Positions 51,126-60,029 are shown, numbered from the stretch's first letter. The stretch: 64,000 bases of DNA from Escherichia virus TH57 (MT446422.1); one strand, 5' to 3'. The notes: generated by a model not told the origin, from the letters alone. Made by a program: numbers and translations.

Positions 51126-51719
51126 ATGAATACTTTAAAGAAACTTGTTGAATTCATCCGCTCCAAACTGGGTACTGCAATGGCAAAAAACCTGTCTATT
51201 GAAGACCAATATACTCAAGCGGCGTCTACCCTAATTGACAAGATTACTGAGCTCCAGACTGCCCACGTTAAGTCTGTTAATGAAGAAAAACGCATCCGCG
51301 AGTTAGCGAATGAAAAAGACCAACTCGCCGCTTCAAAAGAGCGTGAAATCCGCAAACTGATTGCTGATGGTGCAGATGTCCAGGTCCATGCTAAACTGGG
51401 TCTCCTGTATCGCCGCACTGCTAAACAACTTCGTAAGAAGGCAGATGATTATGTTGAAATGCGTAATGAAATTAAATTGAAAGTTAAAGAGCTAGATGAC
51501 TCTCGTCAGGAACTAGCTGTTAAACTGGAATACATCCGCGAAACCCGTAAAGTATCTGCCCTAGGTATTGCGACTGCAGATGATGTTGTTGAAATTGCTG
51601 CATTGACTAAGATTGATATTGAAGACACTCTGATGCGTGTTGAAACCTTCAAAGGCCCACAGGTTGGTGTGGATACCACGTCCGCTGACATTGAAGAATA
51701 CATCAATTCACTTAAGTAA
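51126..51719 (+). CDS. hypothetical coiled-coil protein
   Basis: 197 aa, long charged heptad-like helices. Confidence 0.5.
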
Positions 51720-51762
51720 GATAAAAGGGGGCTTTGCCCCCTAATTGGGAGAGGAGAAAATT

Positions 51763-52317
51763 ATGAGCTTATATACTGACCTTATATCAAATGTAGACTG
51801 GTTTGGCGGTAGTGGCCTTGCTACCGAAACTAATACAGTTCTTTATAGAATCCGTGGCGACTTGGGTTATTCCAATGATTTCTTAAGAAGAACAACAAGT
51901 CGCGGTGATACTACAAAATTGCCTTTTATTTTTGCTTTAGCTGAAGACCTTTCTTTCGCAGATGCCTTGGAAATTATTGATGTAAATCTGGGTATTCAAC
52001 GAGTGGAATTCGCTGGACTACGTTATTCAGTATATGCTTTAAACGAGAGCGATGATTGTATACTTCTTAATATGGCAGATGATGATTACCATTTAGTATG
52101 TTATGTGGCGCTAGAAAATGGTGATGTATTTGGAATGGTTGACCGTCGGCCAGCTTATACTGATATTAAAAATTATGATAAAGCTGAGCTTCTTGATTTG
52201 ACGGCTGAGTACACATTAGAAAGTCATAAACAAAAACGAAAGCTTAATCGTTTTATTGCTGAATGTCGTGAATATGCTAAGGGGGTTCAAAATGCGAACG
52301 TTATATCTGCCAAGTAA
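51763..52317 (+). CDS. hypothetical protein
   Basis: 184 aa from ATG at 51763 (RBS GGAGAGGAG). Confidence 0.5.
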   Translation: MSLYTDLISNVDWFGGSGLATETNTVLYRIRGDLGYSNDFLRRTTSRGDTTKLPFIFALAEDLSFADALEIIDVNLGIQRVEFAGLRYSVYALNESDDCILLNMADDDYHLVCYVALENGDVFGMVDRRPAYTDIKNYDKAELLDLTAEYTLESHKQKRKLNRFIAECREYAKGVQNANVISAK

Positions 52318-52651
52318 ACCAGAAAAATTTGTATACGCAGACAAGATTGATAAAGACCTTATGCCTCCATTTGGAGCTTTGTCCATGTGCATCGTTGGGG
52401 TTATAATGATGGTGCTTTGTGGGGATATGGATATCATTAGTGTCGGAGTCGCCTGGGCACTAATAATCGCAGCTCCTTTTATTACCGTCCTGAGCATGAT
52501 ATTGATAAATGTGTGGCATCAAAATCATATGAATAAAGGATATCGTGGTCGAGTTAAAGAGTGGGAACAAAAATGTGTTTCCCTACAAGAAGAGCACAAA
52601 ATTAAATGTGCCGAAGAATTTATTAAGGAGGTTCGTAATGGAACGGCCTAG
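52292..52651 (+). CDS. hypothetical membrane protein
   Basis: 119 aa from ATG at 52292; two predicted TM helices; C-terminus ...EEFIKEVRNG. Confidence 0.5.
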   Translation: MRTLYLPSKPEKFVYADKIDKDLMPPFGALSMCIVGVIMMVLCGDMDIISVGVAWALIIAAPFITVLSMILINVWHQNHMNKGYRGRVKEWEQKCVSLQEEHKIKCAEEFIKEVRNGTA

Positions 52652-52991
52652 TCTTGCCTCACATGTTTATCAATTGGCTGAATATGATATTGGTGGCAAT
52701 TTATTATTAGGGATTGTCACCGCCATGCTTGGTGGTTTGGTTGGTCTGGTAATGACCACGGTTATGGCTGCAATCGAGGGAGTCATGCCTATTGAGATGG
52801 GGTTCTTTATGATAATCGCTCCGGCTGTTGTGGCTTATTTTATCCCTGTTGTGTATGATATCTGTCACACAAACGCCGTGAATGCTCCTAGTCGGAAGAG
52901 ATATGCTTCAGCAATGGCTGAGTATAATAAGTTCCTAGACAAAACAAAACGTAATGACCTTGAAACCTTTATTAAGGAATGTAAATCATGA
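52638..52991 (+). CDS. hypothetical membrane protein (paralog of preceding gene)
   Basis: 117 aa from ATG at 52638 (RBS AAGGAGG); TM helices; C-terminus ...ETFIKECKS. Confidence 0.5.
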   Translation: MERPSLASHVYQLAEYDIGGNLLLGIVTAMLGGLVGLVMTTVMAAIEGVMPIEMGFFMIIAPAVVAYFIPVVYDICHTNAVNAPSRKRYASAMAEYNKFLDKTKRNDLETFIKECKS

Positions 52992-53278
52992 ATAAAATTG
53001 AAATTGCTATCCCCAAGTATTATGATGAGAAATCTGCAGAAAAAGCTATCTATTCTCTTCTAAATAAGACCTCTGAAATTGAAAAACACTGTGAAGAAAT
53101 CGCAGATGAATATGGCATCGAATTCAGCACTGGCGATTACGGCACCGGCCGTACATATCACCCAGTCGGTTATGAATGTTCCGAATGGTTCGCTCACCAT
53201 ATTGAAAACAACGGCGGACAAGTTGAAAACGGCATTGTTACTGTTGGTGCCTGGGTTTCCTCTTCTGAGGTGTGCTAA
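52988..53278 (+). CDS. small protein, member 1 of tandem W-x-S-S-x-x-C tail family
   Basis: 96 aa ending GAWVSSSEVC; internal EEIADEYG motif. Confidence 0.6.
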   Translation: MNKIEIAIPKYYDEKSAEKAIYSLLNKTSEIEKHCEEIADEYGIEFSTGDYGTGRTYHPVGYECSEWFAHHIENNGGQVENGIVTVGAWVSSSEVC

Positions 53279-53279
53279 T

Positions 53280-53561
53280 ATGATGAATGATTACCGTAAA
53301 AATAAAGAACTGGCTAACGCAGTAAATGATATCCATAAAGCTATTCGTCGTGCCGAGGAAATTGCAGACAAATATGAGACTCATTTTAATATATACCCTG
53401 CTCGCGGTATGGGCGGTGACTATTATTCTCCTGGCGCCTTGAAAGCCGACCTTGCTCATTGGGAAGAACATGGTCATCCTGAATGGGCTATTGTTAATAC
53501 TCATGACTATACAACTGACCTGGAAAATGGTGGTTGGGTGTCCTCTTCTGTTGAATGTTAA
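53280..53561 (+). CDS. small protein, member 2 of tandem W-x-S-S-x-x-C tail family
   Basis: 93 aa ending GGWVSSSVEC; EEIADKYE motif. Confidence 0.6.
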   Translation: MMNDYRKNKELANAVNDIHKAIRRAEEIADKYETHFNIYPARGMGGDYYSPGALKADLAHWEEHGHPEWAIVNTHDYTTDLENGGWVSSSVEC

Positions 53562-53570
53562 GGAATTATT

Positions 53571-53768
53571 ATGTCTCGTGAATTAGATTGTGCAATCCGT
53601 ACTGCCGCGGCAGCTATTGAAAACGTTATCCAGATTTGTAAAGAAGAACGTGAAGAAGCCGACATCTATATCGAAGGTGAAAACCATCTGGACCGTCATA
53701 TCACGATTTACAATGGCTGTATTACAATTACGGGTGGCTCCTGGGTGTCCTCCTCTTACGAATGCTAA
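53571..53768 (+). CDS. small protein, member 3 of tandem W-x-S-S-x-x-C tail family
   Basis: 65 aa ending GSWVSSSYEC. Confidence 0.6.
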   Translation: MSRELDCAIRTAAAAIENVIQICKEEREEADIYIEGENHLDRHITIYNGCITITGGSWVSSSYEC

Positions 53769-53777
53769 GGAAATAAA

Positions 53778-54005
53778 ATGACTGCTAAAACTGTTAAAGA
53801 AATTGAAGACCAAATCCGTGCACTAATCTGTGAAGGTGAACAACTGGCCGATAAAACTGGTGAATACTTTCATGTGTATGCTGACAGTCTTCAACGATAT
53901 ATTCCTGCGGGTTGTCCAGAATACGAAGAGTATGACTGGATTCGCGGTGATTATGGTATCCCAGATGGTAAAGGTTTCTGGTTTAACTCCTCTATGTCTT
54001 GCTAA
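53778..54005 (+). CDS. small protein, member 4 of tandem W-x-S-S-x-x-C tail family
   Basis: 75 aa ending GFWFNSSMSC. Confidence 0.55.
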   Translation: MTAKTVKEIEDQIRALICEGEQLADKTGEYFHVYADSLQRYIPAGCPEYEEYDWIRGDYGIPDGKGFWFNSSMSC

Positions 54006-54014
54006 GGTGATAAA

Positions 54015-54248
54015 ATGACTACTGCTGTTGAATATGCTGAATTAGAAAAAGCTGCCCTTGAATTGGCTGCGCTGTATAAGAAAGTAAAAGATATGGCGTC
54101 TGCTCAAGATTTCGGTGTTGAGCTTGATGATTATGACGGCGAAGTCCGTCTTGAAGACTGGTTGAACAGCTCTTGTTATGGTGAAGAAGCGGGCCGTACC
54201 TTCGTTGCTCGTGCCGATGGTAAAATCTGGTACCCGAGCAGCTGCTAA
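54015..54248 (+). CDS. small protein, member 5 (divergent) of tandem W-x-S-S-x-x-C tail family
   Basis: 77 aa ending KIWYPSSC, with an internal WLNSSCYGEE. Confidence 0.5.
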   Translation: MTTAVEYAELEKAALELAALYKKVKDMASAQDFGVELDDYDGEVRLEDWLNSSCYGEEAGRTFVARADGKIWYPSSC

Positions 54249-54278
54249 AATTATCACAAGGATGTGATAGGAGGACTT

Positions 54279-54608
54279 ATGCACAGAGATTCAGTATTTA
54301 AATATCTTTTAAAAACAGATAAAGAATTTTATATGGATGGACAAGCATTCTTGTTCGTTCGCGGTAAGCGTGAAATGTTTTATAAATGCGACCTCTCCAT
54401 GCATCATCACATGTACCATACCCATGGCGAGTCCATACTAGGGTTCTCTGGTGATGAGACTAAACATATAGCTATGTATTATGACCATTTCAAGCTCAAT
54501 GATTGTGGTGATAATGCTTTGGTCTGGAATCCATCTTGGTGCCGGTGGGATACAATAGACAACAATAAATTATTTTTAGAATATTGCAGAAGTAGTATAC
54601 AACTCTAG
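54279..54608 (+). CDS. hypothetical His/Cys-rich protein
   Basis: 109 aa from ATG at 54279 (RBS AGGAGG); HHHMYHTHGE motif suggests metal binding. Confidence 0.5.
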   Translation: MHRDSVFKYLLKTDKEFYMDGQAFLFVRGKREMFYKCDLSMHHHMYHTHGESILGFSGDETKHIAMYYDHFKLNDCGDNALVWNPSWCRWDTIDNNKLFLEYCRSSIQL

Positions 54609-54672
54609 AAAATCGTGTTACTATTCTCTTATCAACTGATGACAATCACGTTATCAGAACAGGAGAATAAAA

Positions 54673-54873
54673 ATGTCTATCGCAAACGAATTAATCAAAG
54701 TTCTGAACGAAGCCAAAGCCAACCAACTGGAGGTTAATCTCCAGGAAGTTTCAGATGGCATTAAAGTAACCATCAGCGGCGATGGCGTTCCAGGCACTAC
54801 AGAGGTTTACGATTCTTTGGAAGAAGTGGTTTCTTGCATTAAAAGAGCCGTTTACTTATATGGTATAATTTGA
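54673..54873 (+). CDS. hypothetical small protein
   Basis: 66 aa, RBS AGGAGA. Confidence 0.5.
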   Translation: MSIANELIKVLNEAKANQLEVNLQEVSDGIKVTISGDGVPGTTEVYDSLEEVVSCIKRAVYLYGII

Positions 54874-54883
54874 GGAAAATATT

Positions 54884-55051
54884 ATGTATAATGTTCTTAT
54901 TGTTTTTGTCACTCACCCGCAAGGTGGAGTAAGACAGAATACTTCTCAAGTGGTTCAATTTTCTTCACTAGAGGCCGCCAATCTTGCTGCCTCACGAATT
55001 GAAGCGAAAAAATCGGCACTTGGAAAATATGAAGTAACTCGTCTTTACTAA
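54884..55051 (+). CDS. hypothetical small protein (55 aa)
   Basis: ATG preceded by conserved TGAGGAAAATATT initiation region; below ORF-track cutoff. Confidence 0.4.
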   Translation: MYNVLIVFVTHPQGGVRQNTSQVVQFSSLEAANLAASRIEAKKSALGKYEVTRLY

Positions 55052-55064
55052 TGAGGAAAATATT

Positions 55065-56024
55065 ATGATGTTAGTTATTGGCTCTCGCGCATTGCATAAC
55101 GCCGGTCTGATTGAAAGTAAGAAAATTGAAAACTCTGATTGGGACTTTATAGCAGACCAAGGTTCCTGGAACAACTTTAAAACCCAGATGATGGGGCAGC
55201 ACGTGCATGTGGATAACCCAGATGTTCAAGCTTTTAAATGTATGCACAATGGCAAAGAAACCTATTTTGAAGCATACATCGTCCGGGCACTGACAAGTGT
55301 TCGTGAACTGACTGATGAGTTACAAGAGGAAGATTTTACCTCTAGTTATCGTCTGCTCAAATATGCGAAGGCGAATATTCAGAAAGACCGTCTATCTGGT
55401 TTTTACTGGGCGACTCCTGATATTTGTCTGGCAATTAAACTGTCTCATCGTTACCTGAAGAACAATCCATTCTTCCTGAAGACCATGAGTCATATTAATT
55501 ACCTTCGCAATAAGGGTGTTGTTCTTAATGATGAACTGCAGAAAATTATGCAACAACGCCAGGCAGAAACACTGTCATATAGTCACCCTAAACTAGATGT
55601 GGGCAAGAAAACTTTCTTTAATGATACAATCTATACCCTTGACCATGACTCCATCCACGAGGCTGTGGCGCTTGCTGATAAGCCTGCATATAAGTTCTAT
55701 ATGAAGGATGATTCAGAAGTCATGACCTCGCGTGAAAAATTTGAAGCACTCCCTGAGATTATTAAACTGGCTGGGGTTTATGAAGAAGCATGTGTACTTG
55801 CTCTGGAGCGTTCGCAGGTTCCCAATGAGTTCAATATCTCTCCATCCGTGAGCTTCCATATTGCTCTGGAAAAAGTCTGCACCTCCATTACTTCTGGATG
55901 GTTCCGCGAGTATGCCTGGGAACATTACCAGGAAGTGGTTAATATGTACAACACCCTGGGTCACGAAGACTATGTTAAACGTTTCAAAGCTAACCAGCAT
56001 TTAATTCGCCCTTTCGAAAAATAA
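55065..56024 (+). CDS. putative nucleotidyltransferase-fold protein
   Basis: 319 aa; N-terminal IGSRALHNAGLIESKKIENSDWDF fits the Pol-beta-type NTase signature G[GS]x(9-15)DxD; remainder unassigned. Confidence 0.45.
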   Translation: MMLVIGSRALHNAGLIESKKIENSDWDFIADQGSWNNFKTQMMGQHVHVDNPDVQAFKCMHNGKETYFEAYIVRALTSVRELTDELQEEDFTSSYRLLKYAKANIQKDRLSGFYWATPDICLAIKLSHRYLKNNPFFLKTMSHINYLRNKGVVLNDELQKIMQQRQAETLSYSHPKLDVGKKTFFNDTIYTLDHDSIHEAVALADKPAYKFYMKDDSEVMTSREKFEALPEIIKLAGVYEEACVLALERSQVPNEFNISPSVSFHIALEKVCTSITSGWFREYAWEHYQEVVNMYNTLGHEDYVKRFKANQHLIRPFEK

Positions 56025-56026
56025 TT

Positions 56027-56060
56027 GTGTACATCCAAGTGGGACTATGACACAATAGTC
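56027..56060 (+). promoter_or_regulatory. early promoter-like cassette with 10-bp inverted repeat
   Basis: gtgtac followed by GTGGGACTAT-gacaca-ATAGTCCCAC; -10 assignment uncertain. Confidence 0.35.
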
Positions 56061-56083
56061 CCACAATCAATGAGGAAAATATT

Positions 56084-56770
56084 ATGAACGGTCCAAAAAC
56101 TTTTAATTCTCAAGCTCATGCAGTAGGCAGTTTCGCTGGTAAAATTTCTAATGATAAAATCAAAAACGAAACTATGTTCTTCAACAGCTCATTGGCTTTC
56201 GCTTTTGACAATGGCGGTCCTATTACTCGTAGCTTTATCATGAGTCTGCCGGATGATTGGAACACTGACCAGGTTGTATTTGATTCTCGGGTTCATATGC
56301 TGATGCCTGGTTGGTATCCCGCTATCCCAGGTTATCACCATGATGATGTACCACGCCCGGATATTCCGGTTGGTCAACACTTTATTACTGCAGGGCAACC
56401 TGATTATGATAATCCTCGTTACCATTCTGAACATATTCTTGGTCTTGTTAACGCTGATGTGTGTCCTACTTATTTTGCAACCGGAACTGCAGAATTCAGT
56501 CAGATTCCTGAAGGCGAACTTATCTATCGCCAGTGGCATAAAGAAGTTCTGGAAAAAATTGAGTCCAATGAATTAACCAAGTGGGATGCTCCTGACCGCA
56601 CGTTGCTCCAGTTTGATTGGCAGACATGGCATACAGGTTCTCGTGCAGTAAGTAACGGTTGGCGCTGGTTTGGTCGTGTGTCTCGTAATACCGACCGTGT
56701 TAAAAAGATTACAAATGAAATCCGCGTTAATGCTCAAGTATATCTGGAATTCCCTATGGAGGGCTGGTAA
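56084..56770 (+). CDS. hypothetical protein, His-rich (possible metal-dependent enzyme)
   Basis: 228 aa; YHHDD and RYHSEH motifs; no confident family assignment. Confidence 0.5.
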   Translation: MNGPKTFNSQAHAVGSFAGKISNDKIKNETMFFNSSLAFAFDNGGPITRSFIMSLPDDWNTDQVVFDSRVHMLMPGWYPAIPGYHHDDVPRPDIPVGQHFITAGQPDYDNPRYHSEHILGLVNADVCPTYFATGTAEFSQIPEGELIYRQWHKEVLEKIESNELTKWDAPDRTLLQFDWQTWHTGSRAVSNGWRWFGRVSRNTDRVKKITNEIRVNAQVYLEFPMEGW

Positions 56771-57357
56771 TGGCCCTTTATGAACCTGGCTGTATGGGTG
56801 TTGATGTAAACTTCATCCGACGGGCAGAAAATGCAGGTATAATTGTATCAAGAGACGAATTTATGATTACCAAAAAATATTGGGCAAACCTTGATGATGG
56901 TGATGAAGGAATCAAGGTTGAAAACGTTGATTGGTCGCGATGCAATCGTCATGTGAAAGAGCTTTTAATTAAGGAATATAAAATGGGATATATTGTTAAT
57001 GGGTATCAACCGGAACCACTCAAAGAACAGACACCCGACCCATTAATTTCTTATAGCAAGAAATATGGATTTCGTACCTGGAAAGATGAATTTGATAAGT
57101 TAATTTGTTCCAGGTTTTATGTGTGGGCTGGAATCTTATTTTTACCAATCCTGTTGTTTTTCTTGACAGGTAAAAATGAAGCGCCTGTGGCTGTAATGGG
57201 CGCGTGCATTTCTTCTGCTGCTGTTGGACTTATTGCATCATTTTTATGGACTATGGTTATTGAAGTACCTTTTCGTATTTCTAAAGTTAAAAAGGTATAT
57301 GACGATATCACTAAGAAAAATACATTGAACTCTTTTATTGAGGAATGCCGTAAATGA
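56770..57357 (+). CDS. hypothetical membrane protein
   Basis: 195 aa; two TM helices in C-terminal half; C-terminus ...NSFIEECRK resembles 52292..52991 paralogs. Confidence 0.5.
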   Translation: MALYEPGCMGVDVNFIRRAENAGIIVSRDEFMITKKYWANLDDGDEGIKVENVDWSRCNRHVKELLIKEYKMGYIVNGYQPEPLKEQTPDPLISYSKKYGFRTWKDEFDKLICSRFYVWAGILFLPILLFFLTGKNEAPVAVMGACISSAAVGLIASFLWTMVIEVPFRISKVKKVYDDITKKNTLNSFIEECRK

Positions 57358-59033: not shown

Positions 59034-59081
59034 CTAAAAAGGTTGTATAATGATTTTATCAACCAAACAATGGAATATAAA

Positions 59082-59396
59082 ATGAAAACTTATCAAGAAT
59101 TTATTACTGAATCTACCCAAAAACGTGTTGAAGGCGGTTATGTCTGGATTGAACAATTAACCCCACCAAGTGAAACGAGCACGGGTTCGTGGAAAATTAC
59201 TGTTGATGGCCCTGGTGGAAAACGTAAGACTATTAAAGAAATTAAAGGCTATTATGATGAAGCCAAATCATGGGCTGGTAGTCATGTAATGCAGATTAAA
59301 ATTGCAAACCCGGATAACGTTCATGCGGCAAAAGCATTCCGTCGCATTGGTAATAAACTTTATGATGCGTTTTTGCGTGATTTCCCTAAAGAGTAA
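59082..59396 (+). CDS. internal head protein-like protein (CTS-bearing)
   Basis: N-terminus MKTYQEFITE from ATG at 59082. Confidence 0.65.
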   Translation: MKTYQEFITESTQKRVEGGYVWIEQLTPPSETSTGSWKITVDGPGGKRKTIKEIKGYYDEAKSWAGSHVMQIKIANPDNVHAAKAFRRIGNKLYDAFLRDFPKE

Positions 59397-59409
59397 TTAA
59401 AGAGACATT

Positions 59410-59673
59410 ATGAAAACTTATCAAGAATTTATTACTGAATCTGCTAAAGCTCCTACCGGTGCTTTTAAAGTCCGCGCCTTCGCTGGTGATGCTGAAGACT
59501 TTGGCACCATGAAGCGCAATGGTTATTCTTTCTTTGGTGGCGATGGTAAAGAAATTGTTACCTATGCAAAACGCCGCGAAATCGCATTCGTGGTTGCTGG
59601 TAAGAAAGTTGATGTTGACGATATTGAATGGGATTTTGATACCTTTGGTATTGTTTCTGGCGGTAAAGCATAA
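59410..59673 (+). CDS. internal head protein-like protein (CTS-bearing)
   Basis: N-terminus MKTYQEFITE; paralog of 46381..46680. Confidence 0.7.
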   Translation: MKTYQEFITESAKAPTGAFKVRAFAGDAEDFGTMKRNGYSFFGGDGKEIVTYAKRREIAFVVAGKKVDVDDIEWDFDTFGIVSGGKA

Positions 59674-59675
59674 CT

Positions 59676-59704
59676 GTTTACTTTATGATGGGATAGTGTA
59701 TAAT
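59676..59704 (+). promoter_or_regulatory. sigma70-type early promoter (best match in window)
   Basis: GTTTAC, 17-nt spacer, TATAAT; -10 inside GGGATA/TATCCC inverted repeat; conserved leader. Confidence 0.65.
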
Positions 59705-59729
59705 TATCCCATCAACTTGGAGCGAATAA

Positions 59730-60029
59730 ATGAAAACTTATCAAGAATTTATTACTGAAGCCAAAGCTCCTAAAGCATTTCAAATTGGGGTTCAGGGTAA
59801 TTTAGACCAACAATACGTTGATGCTATTGTAGCAAGCCTCGGCAAGCAGGGTGTACAAGTGGATTTGGTTGATTTTACTAAAGGTAATACTTTTAATATT
59901 GTCACATCTAAAGGTTCTTTAGCTAAAGTTAAAAAGGCCTTTGGCGTAGCACAAGCATATGAAATCGACCATTCCGAATTGGAAAATAAAGGTCGCCAGA
60001 ACACAATTAAAGGCTCTGGTTCTTTCTAA
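59730..60029 (+). CDS. internal head protein-like protein (CTS-bearing)
   Basis: N-terminus MKTYQEFITE. Confidence 0.7.
   Translation: MKTYQEFITEAKAPKAFQIGVQGNLDQQYVDAIVASLGKQGVQVDLVDFTKGNTFNIVTSKGSLAKVKKAFGVAQAYEIDHSELENKGRQNTIKGSGSF

Follow-up and report, generated by a model that had tools for sequence, protein, structure and literature searches.

A shared C-terminal tail on otherwise unrelated small proteins encoded after gene e.6 in T4-like phages

In the 64,000-nucleotide (nt) stretch of Escherichia virus TH57 (MT446422.1) analysed here, called the window throughout, five proteins encoded in the block that begins directly after the homologue of T4 gene e.6 carry a common C-terminal tail. 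Sequence comparison points to a protein-level motif of the form hydrophobic-x-x-[F/W/Y]-[I/V]-x-x-C-[R/K]-(K), which appears to behave as a module on different bodies, because the bodies without their tails are unrelated and the tail stands on soluble proteins as well as on proteins with two transmembrane (TM) helices. The e.6 protein itself is probably a remote relative of the PspA/IM30/Vipp1 family (bacterial ESCRT-III), not a member of it. The tail may be a shared docking helix with e.6 as its partner, a reading that we hold tentatively and to which we would give somewhat less than an even chance.

The window DNA is about 92-93% identical to that of Escherichia virus TH41 and Shigella phage SP18 (Straboviridae, Tevenvirinae, Gaprivervirus), and NudE, T4 lysozyme and DenV are encoded downstream of the tail-gene region; by its sequence the phage is T4-like, with SP18 as the nearest relative. 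The initial annotation had described three open reading frames (ORFs), the adjacent 52292..52651 and 52638..52991 and a third at 56770..57357, as a family of small two-TM membrane proteins with a FI(K/E)EC tail. All three are present on the + strand behind strong ribosome-binding sites (AAGGGGG, AAGGAGG and GGAGGG, respectively), encode proteins of 119, 117 and 195 amino acids (aa), and are homologues of T4 e.4, e.3 and e.2 by sequence and position. The corresponding SP18 annotations are e.4 (predicted membrane protein), 'similar to JS98 gp130' and e.2 (predicted membrane protein). The e.4 homologue matches phrog_2604 (E 4.9e-45 over 1-118), falls into the BLAST cluster of T4 e.4 and lies after e.5. 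The e.3 homologue, which is of the JS98 gp130 type, matches phrog_2330 (E 7.2e-46) and lies after e.4, and the gp130-type protein groups with T4 e.3 in BLAST clustering (cluster 0). The e.2 homologue belongs to the T4 e.2 family (PHROG 2203; precomputed Pfam PF26896) with a match to phrog_2203 at E 4.7e-67, and possesses the DDGDEG...VDW of the N-terminal cytoplasmic domain, the two TM helices and [FW]IxxCRK.

The three genes do carry the tail, but the set was incomplete, as two carriers without any TM helix had been missed. One is a soluble e.5-like protein of 184 aa (51763..52317, +; phrog_8788) whose gene lies directly after e.6; it was placed in the e.5 family by profile comparison with hhalign, in which the window type matches a distant type with 90% probability and the distant type matches the T4 type with 96%, the direct match between the window and T4 types being weak (64%). 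The other is a soluble 109-aa protein of the SP18 gp135 type (54279..54608, +; phrog_9796). The C-termini of the first three genes read as originally reported: the e.4 homologue ends in AEEFIKEVRNGTA (tail AEEFIKEVRN, 52610..52636, from the Cys-less branch of the motif), the e.3 homologue in LETFIKECKS (52959..52985) and the e.2 homologue in LNSFIEECRK (57325..57351), all on the + strand. In the e.5-like protein the tail LNRFIAECRE (52243..52269, +; tail region LNRFIAECREYAKG) stands 15 aa ahead of the stop and the C-terminus reads LNRFIAECREYAKGVQNANVISAK, while the 109-aa protein has the tail NKLFLEYCRS (54564..54590, +) and the C-terminus KLFLEYCRSSIQL.

The two hydrophobic helices claimed for each of the three membrane proteins were recovered with the Kyte-Doolittle scale, at aa 27-46 and 53-75 of the e.4 homologue, 21-44 and 54-74 of the e.3 homologue and 114-133 and 142-166 of the e.2 homologue. 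The loops joining the helices are 6-9 aa long with 0-1 K/R, and the regions following them are 29-44 aa long with 8-9 K/R; because of this distribution and the positive-inside rule, both ends, and hence the tail, should be cytoplasmic, in agreement with the initial proposal of a conserved cytoplasmic tail. In an AlphaFold2 model of the 195-aa protein (25-sequence alignment, mean predicted local distance difference test score, pLDDT, of 58), helices span residues 105-132 and 141-194 and the tail continues the second helix; only the TM hairpin and the tail helix of this model are usable, the N-terminal domain being unresolved. The tail is thus helical as modelled. The e.5-like protein reached a pLDDT of 50 when predicted from its single sequence, and the fold search of that model against viral structures gave nothing below E=0.016, which was taken as meaningless. 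The e.4 family also has a second short conserved motif, (L)YLPSKP, at its cytoplasmic N-terminus (window 52292..52330), which is retained in the e.4 homologues of T4, Pectobacterium phage PM2 and Klebsiella phage KPV15.

Chance as the source of the likeness was ruled out by shuffling and a six-frame scan. The pattern FI[KE]E[CV] occurs in the last 25 aa of 3 window ORFs, against a mean of 0.00 and a maximum of 1 in 300 residue shuffles, and the matches to a relaxed pattern over the six frames of the 64 kb are confined to this gene cluster. Moreover, BLASTP aligned the e.4 homologue with the e.3-like protein across 84 aa (E=1e-5), and the tails of the e.3-like and e.2 proteins are identical at 9 of 19 positions (E=2e-4).

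For the wider comparison, 21 IMG/VR loci were retrieved with e.6 as the anchor, and loci of T4, SP18, Aeromonas phage 60AhydR15PP, Serratia phage CHI14, Morganella phage Rgz1 and a Slopekvirus-like Klebsiella phage were added; the more distant IMG/VR loci match Pectobacterium phage PM2, Klebsiella phages Marfa and KPV15 and a relative of Enterobacter phage CIP9. Carriers, one to seven per locus, were found in every locus, and they form at least 12 BLAST-distinct families, both soluble and two-TM. Among 1852 ORFs from the window and 23 loci, a tail fitting the loose pattern was present in 85/1181 on the + strand versus 5/671 on the - strand. The consensus of 39 non-redundant tails is [L/F/I]-[E/N/D]-x-[F/W]-[I/V]-K-x-C-R-K, in which positions -3 (L/F/I), -2 (E/N/D), +2 (K) and +6 are conserved although they lay outside the search pattern. 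The Morganella phage tail has Y at position 0, and the hydrophobic positions -3, 0, +1 and +4 would share one helix face. In the e.4 branch, Cys is absent from every lineage and replaced by V, S, I or M, which makes a universal catalytic or metal-binding Cys unlikely.

The conservation is also deep within single families. Fourteen aligned e.5 orthologues, about 20% identical, have just four invariant residues, N94, F164, C168 and R169, the last three belonging to the tail. The Arg codon of the tails varies between CGT, CGC, CGA, AGA and AGG and the Cys codon between TGT and TGC; because synonymous codons vary while F, C and R are invariant in divergent e.5 proteins, selection appears to act on the tail at the protein level. 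The e.2 family has 18 representatives among 1.84 billion proteins, and all 14 full-length representatives examined end in [FW]I-x-x-CR; tblastn found e.2 homologues in 650 phage records, all from T4-like phages of enterobacteria.

Without their tails, the e.2, e.3 and e.4 families showed no homology to one another in profile-profile comparison (hhalign), while the three e.5 types were still related to one another after tail removal. The tail is therefore not the signature of a membrane-protein family, as the initial annotation had it; since soluble proteins have it too, the tail rather than the membrane hairpin is the common element. A search of a 5.8-billion-protein set with a 47-aa tail profile returned only fragments of the same families, and one search with concatenated e.5+e.4+e.3+e.2 rows returned e.2 homologues only. 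The five carriers had no significant match in Pfam, NCBIfam, PADLOC or the PDB sequences, and their PHROG matches were to families of unknown function or 'membrane protein' only, with weak cross-hits between them. The T4 ORFs e.2, e.3, e.4 and e.5 are uncharacterised and some are labelled 'predicted membrane protein'. The ORFs themselves are already known, and no earlier description of the common tail, or of its double use for the ribosome-binding site downstream, was found in the open-access literature, where searching by gene name was uninformative; nothing relevant turned up there on toxicity screens either.

The carriers are tied to e.6 by position. Of the 27 loci, which represent about ten T4-like genera, 26 have [FWY][ILV]xxC[RK] in the first ORF after e.6; in the 27th (L013 9636..10251, a T4-type contig), e.5 is split into ORFs of 145 and 92 aa, and the motif is on the second. 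All carriers in the DNA examined sit in the block beginning directly after e.6; the rest of the 64-kb window has none, nor do the first 50 kb of T4. The e.6/e.5 pair is also intact in the Aeromonas and Slopekvirus-like Klebsiella phages, where it lies in a different neighbourhood, near nrdD, and e.5 is the sole carrier. The e.5-type protein is the only partner present in every lineage examined, and because the pair persists though the surrounding genes differ, a functional tie between e.6 and e.5 is suggested.

The window homologue of e.6 (51126..51719, +) is a coiled-coil protein of 197 aa, 75% identical to T4 e.6, directly upstream of the tail genes. The protein was found in 1110 phage records with no annotation of substance; some records call it 'host specificity protein', a label that seems unfounded. 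A profile of nine or ten diverse e.6 proteins was compared with all PDB sequences, and the top four matches were Vipp1/IM30 (E 2.6e-4 to 3.5e-3) with colinear alignments (1-157 versus 1-159); more PspA and Vipp1 entries match at E of about 0.3. Likewise, hhalign gave a probability of 87.6% over 122 columns to the match between e.6 and the PspA/Vipp1 family. The real score of e.6 was 24.9 bits, that of the reversed sequence 10.1, and the maximum in 2000 shuffles of residues or 7-residue blocks was 11.8, so that 0 of 2000 equalled the real one. The Morganella-phage e.6 alone matches the NCBIfam PspA model TIGR02977 at E 9.5e-4 (residues 1-156 versus 1-157 of 219). No description of e.6 as a PspA-like protein was found in the open-access literature, with the same proviso on gene names, and phage-encoded homologues are not mentioned in the 2021 and 2025 bacterial ESCRT-III papers or the Psp-system papers covered. 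The 43 nt that separate e.6 from the e.5-like gene contain a hairpin rich in G+C (AGGGGGCTTTGCCCCCT, 51724..51742), which lacks a T-run on the + strand and could give e.6 and the later genes different expression levels. In a scan for promoters and terminators, no promoter signal rose over background.

The proposed mechanism is that the tail would act as a cytoplasmic docking helix binding otherwise unrelated proteins to one common partner, most likely the product of the adjacent gene e.6. With their two TM helices, e.2, e.3 and e.4 could then be inner-membrane anchors or sensors that bring an e.6 polymer to the membrane, and the soluble e.5-type protein a cytoplasmic partner or regulator of e.6; the likely purpose would be an inner membrane that stays sealed and energised during infection. 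Recruitment of e.6 by two-TM proteins is suggested by analogy, because LiaI recruits LiaH, and PspB and PspC recruit PspA. Small inner-membrane anchors that recruit PspA-family proteins thus have precedent (PMC9239133, PMC7619361), and in both PspA with PspB/PspC of E. coli and LiaH with LiaI of B. subtilis the PspA-family gene stands beside those of its small inner-membrane recruiters. The window resembles these systems in having a PspA/Vipp1-like e.6 followed by small two-TM proteins with cytoplasmic tails, as known here from sequence. It differs from them in that the phage partners number one to seven, are phage-encoded and include soluble proteins, and a common C-terminal motif such as that of the phage carriers is not known from Psp or Lia partners. 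The wider proposal, that T4-like phages encode their own Psp/ESCRT-III-type membrane-maintenance system, in which an e.6 polymer would be recruited and regulated by a variable set of tagged proteins (the anchors e.2, e.3 and e.4, and the universal soluble e.5), is doubtful at present and is offered as a conjecture. Such a system would keep the membrane sealed and energised after DNA injection, in lysis inhibition or against depolarising host defences, and it would bear on lysis timing and on the evasion of membrane-targeting defences only indirectly.

Two better-known cases of short tags on unrelated T4 proteins were also compared. The C-terminal clamp-binding tails of gp43, gp33 and gp55 all bind the sliding clamp gp45. 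The logic of unrelated proteins joined to one hub by a short C-terminal peptide is the same, but the sequence and the proteins differ, and there is no evidence for gp45 as the hub of the window tails. The capsid targeting sequence of T4 internal proteins, MKTYQEFI[AT]E..., is likewise a short amphipathic tag on unrelated proteins and locally resembles the tails (QEFITES versus NRFITEC), but it is N-terminal and has no C-R. Kinship through EFI[AT]E was rejected as coincidental, given that E is not conserved in the tails of distant phages, C-R is absent and membrane proteins are not packageable. The window itself has three internal-protein-like ORFs at 59043..60029 (+) with MKTYQEFITE at or near the N-terminus; in the first, which matches Ip10 of SP18, it follows an in-frame ATG at about 59082.

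Several observations weigh against the docking model and the membrane system built on it. The e.4 branch has no Cys, so the thiol cannot be essential for whatever the carriers share. The tail shows no similarity to PspB, PspC or LiaI, and e.2, e.3 and e.4 have no Pfam or NCBIfam match to those families, so that they are not counted as members. The loci were chosen by the e.6 anchor, and the co-occurrence of e.6 and carriers is partly built in, its independent part being the absence of the motif elsewhere. The likeness of e.6 to PspA is remote (E of about 3e-4 to 1e-3), lies below every curated family cut-off and concerns a coiled-coil-rich protein: the Morganella-phage e.6 scores 18.9 bits against the TIGR02977 cut-off of 243, and PF04012 (Pfam PspA) matched none of the single sequences of 9 e.6 members at E up to 10. 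Finally, e.2 is full length in the window phage but frameshifted in T4, which makes at least e.2 dispensable in the laboratory. The T4 reference (NC_000866) encodes a frameshifted remnant of 102 aa where relatives encode an intact 162-aa protein; in the 'intergenic' DNA between e.2 and nudE (about 67491..67700), two other frames still spell out the remainder, as ...KNPMDRIGDW... and then ...FIEMPWRLRRQQKIFDEKKYAQNLNNFITECR, with NNFITECR included.

Part of the tail coding sequence has a second role. The Shine-Dalgarno sequence AAGGAGG of the e.3 homologue (52625..52631, +) lies inside the K-E codons of the e.4 tail. In the e.3-homologue tail, the K-E codons provide a Shine-Dalgarno-like AAGGAA (52974..52979, +) 8 nt ahead of the ATG at 52988, and in the e.2 tail the E-E codons provide GAGGAA (57340..57345, +) 8 nt ahead of the ATG at 57354, both starts overlapping the stop as ATGA. 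The A of this overlap is supplied by the last tail residue (K = AAA, S = TCA). Across the junctions compared, which include redundant orthologues, the codons of the two variable residues before the Cys position (x3 and x4) are Shine-Dalgarno-like in 35/35 rows where the next ATG lies 5-10 nt past x4 (AAGGAA, GAGGAA, AAGGAG, AAAGGA, AAAGGG and AGGAGC, with ATGGAA, which has the GGA core only, in two rows), and in 0/30 rows where it is at least 13 nt away and a separate site is used instead. For the 109-aa ORF and its orthologues (eight loci) the next gene starts 54-88 nt past the motif, and because of this distance the tail has no Shine-Dalgarno role there; the aromatic residue, I/V, C and R are nevertheless kept. 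From these sequences, the (K/E)E positions lie outside the protein motif and encode the Shine-Dalgarno site of the next gene, and the dual coding covers only x3, x4 and the last residue. Of the FI(K/E)EC consensus put forward initially, the tail itself is real, but its (K/E)E comes from this embedded site and its Cys is missing in e.4. C-terminal consensus motifs in tightly packed phage genes can thus hide the ribosome-binding site of the next gene and should be read accordingly.

The region is also plastic. The ribosome-binding site and start of e.4 (AAGGGGGTTCAAAATG, 52279..52294, +) and those of the e.3 homologue (AAGGAGGTTCGTAATG, 52625..52640, +) form a 16-nt junction repeat identical at 13/16 positions. 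JS98-type phages lack exactly window 52291..52636, that is e.4, between the repeats (comparison with L007 10170/10171), and the end of their e.5, ...EVQNGTA, is a hybrid of the e.5 and e.4 ends. A 106-aa database protein (P0045) joins the first ~31 residues of e.4 to the C-terminal 75 residues of e.2, which implies that all DNA between these parts was lost in some T4-type phage. Because the absence of e.4 falls exactly between the repeats and an e.4/e.2 fusion protein exists, the repeated junctions appear from sequence to act as recombination points. Recombination there can help cassettes to spread and shuffle, but offers no account of why the motif is so deeply conserved. Gene conversion among the paralogous tails was rejected, as there are no long identical DNA stretches.

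Two explanations of the tail at the DNA level can be weighed with these data. If the likeness were a by-product of translational coupling, the 3' ends being bound to encode the Shine-Dalgarno sequence and overlapping start of the next gene, the dependence of x3-x4 on a near ATG (35/35 versus 0/30) and the final K or S codon in the ATGA overlap would be expected; this accounts for x3, x4 and the last residue only, however, whereas F/W/Y, I/V, C and R are conserved despite synonymous variation, and the motif is kept both where the next start is 54-88 nt off (eight 109-aa orthologues) and where it stands 9-27 aa ahead of the stop (e.5 types). A ribosome-binding site as the sole cause is refuted and remains a contributing constraint, and as the explanation of the tail we consider coupling very improbable. 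Somewhat less improbable, though still unlikely to be the main cause, is that tail DNA and ribosome-binding-site junctions serve as recombination linkers that move cassettes, new bodies being joined to a resident 3' end. The precise loss of e.4 between the 13/16 identical 16-nt repeats in JS98-type phages, the fusion P0045 and the highly variable gene content between e.6 and nudE all fit such linkers, but the identity of paralogous tail DNA is just 11-16 nt, orthologous tails cluster by family and not by genome, and linkers explain spread rather than why F, I, C and R are so strictly kept in deeply diverged sequences. They are compatible with the docking model.

At the protein level, the tail might be a mere remnant of ancestry, a tandem duplication having given rise to e.5, e.4, e.3 and e.2, whose bodies diverged while the last helix was kept for local structure with no shared partner. 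The genes are adjacent and co-oriented, the e.4 and e.3 homologues still align over 84-94 residues (hhalign 79%), and weak PHROG cross-hits exist. Yet unrelated soluble and membrane bodies have the tail in common, and its residues are the most conserved of each family, which would be unusual for a solvent-exposed terminal helix with no partner; we judge this origin unlikely but worth keeping in mind. Docking to a partner other than e.6, of host or phage origin, with the adjacency of e.6 reflecting only a shared early transcription unit, has a similarly small chance of being correct. All the evidence for a shared docking helix fits it equally, and many T4 early accessory proteins target host proteins, but the e.6/e.5 pair stays joined where the neighbouring genes differ. 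The initial annotation had suggested superinfection exclusion, lysis timing or defence evasion, so that the carriers would be independent small membrane effectors and the tail their family signature. Such roles would suit small proteins of the inner membrane that are encoded in an early, variable and non-essential region of a T4-like phage, and a neighbour is called 'holin' in one public record (automatic annotation). Soluble proteins have the tail too, however, and no significant match to holins, antiholins, superinfection-exclusion proteins (Imm, Sp, SieB) or known anti-defence proteins was found in Pfam, NCBIfam, PADLOC or the PDB sequences. These functions gained no direct support, the context pointing to e.6 instead, and independent effectors seem as improbable as translational coupling.

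The order of genes in T4 is e.6, e.5, e.4, e.3, e.2, nudE, e, and e.2-e.5 of T4, JS98, SP18 and RB69 are direct homologues standing in the same order after e.6 as in the window. The T4 tails (e.5 ...KFVKECREY..., e.4 ...KFVKESRCKSQS, e.3 ...EFVIDCRKIK) are of the same kind as those of the window. The window phage differs from T4 in its extra 109-aa carrier and in an insertion of other genes, about 3.8 kb in all, that separates e.3 from e.2. Among the inserted genes are five tandem small paralogues at 52988..54248 (+) of 96, 93 (start 53280), 65, 75 and 77 aa, which match phrog_899 (unknown function) and end in W-[V/F/Y]-x-S-S-x(0-2)-C (WVSSSEVC, WVSSSVEC, WVSSSYEC, WFNSSMSC and WYPSSC); a terminal Cys after a Ser run is unusual. 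The gaps between them are 1-9 nt, with the stop followed by a Shine-Dalgarno-like GG(A/T) core in 3/4, as in TAAGGAAATAAAATG. Paralogues of this type are present in most related phages and not between T4 e.3 and e.2. Two larger genes also sit between the carriers and are conserved across related phages: 55065..56024 (+) encodes a 319-aa protein with DUF7277 (E 2.7e-27) and DUF7275 (E 2.7e-76) and no other Pfam domains, and 56084..56770 (+) a 228-aa protein that matches phrog_1843 and has no Pfam match. One public record has 'nucleotidyltransferase' and 'phytanoyl-CoA dioxygenase' among the products that it gives for the region.

Many T4 genes have had no assigned function after decades, e.2 to e.6 among them, and the shared tag offers a handle on five at once. 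Under the docking-tag model a common partner is expected, and the residues to mutate are the aromatic residue, I/V, C and R. If the model holds, the cluster would be a phage variant of a Psp/Lia-type system with a tag-based set of partners. If e.6 is indeed a working relative of PspA/Vipp1, the bacterial ESCRT-III superfamily would have a member encoded by a virus, and the finding would bear on how T4 holds the host membrane intact through injection and lysis inhibition.

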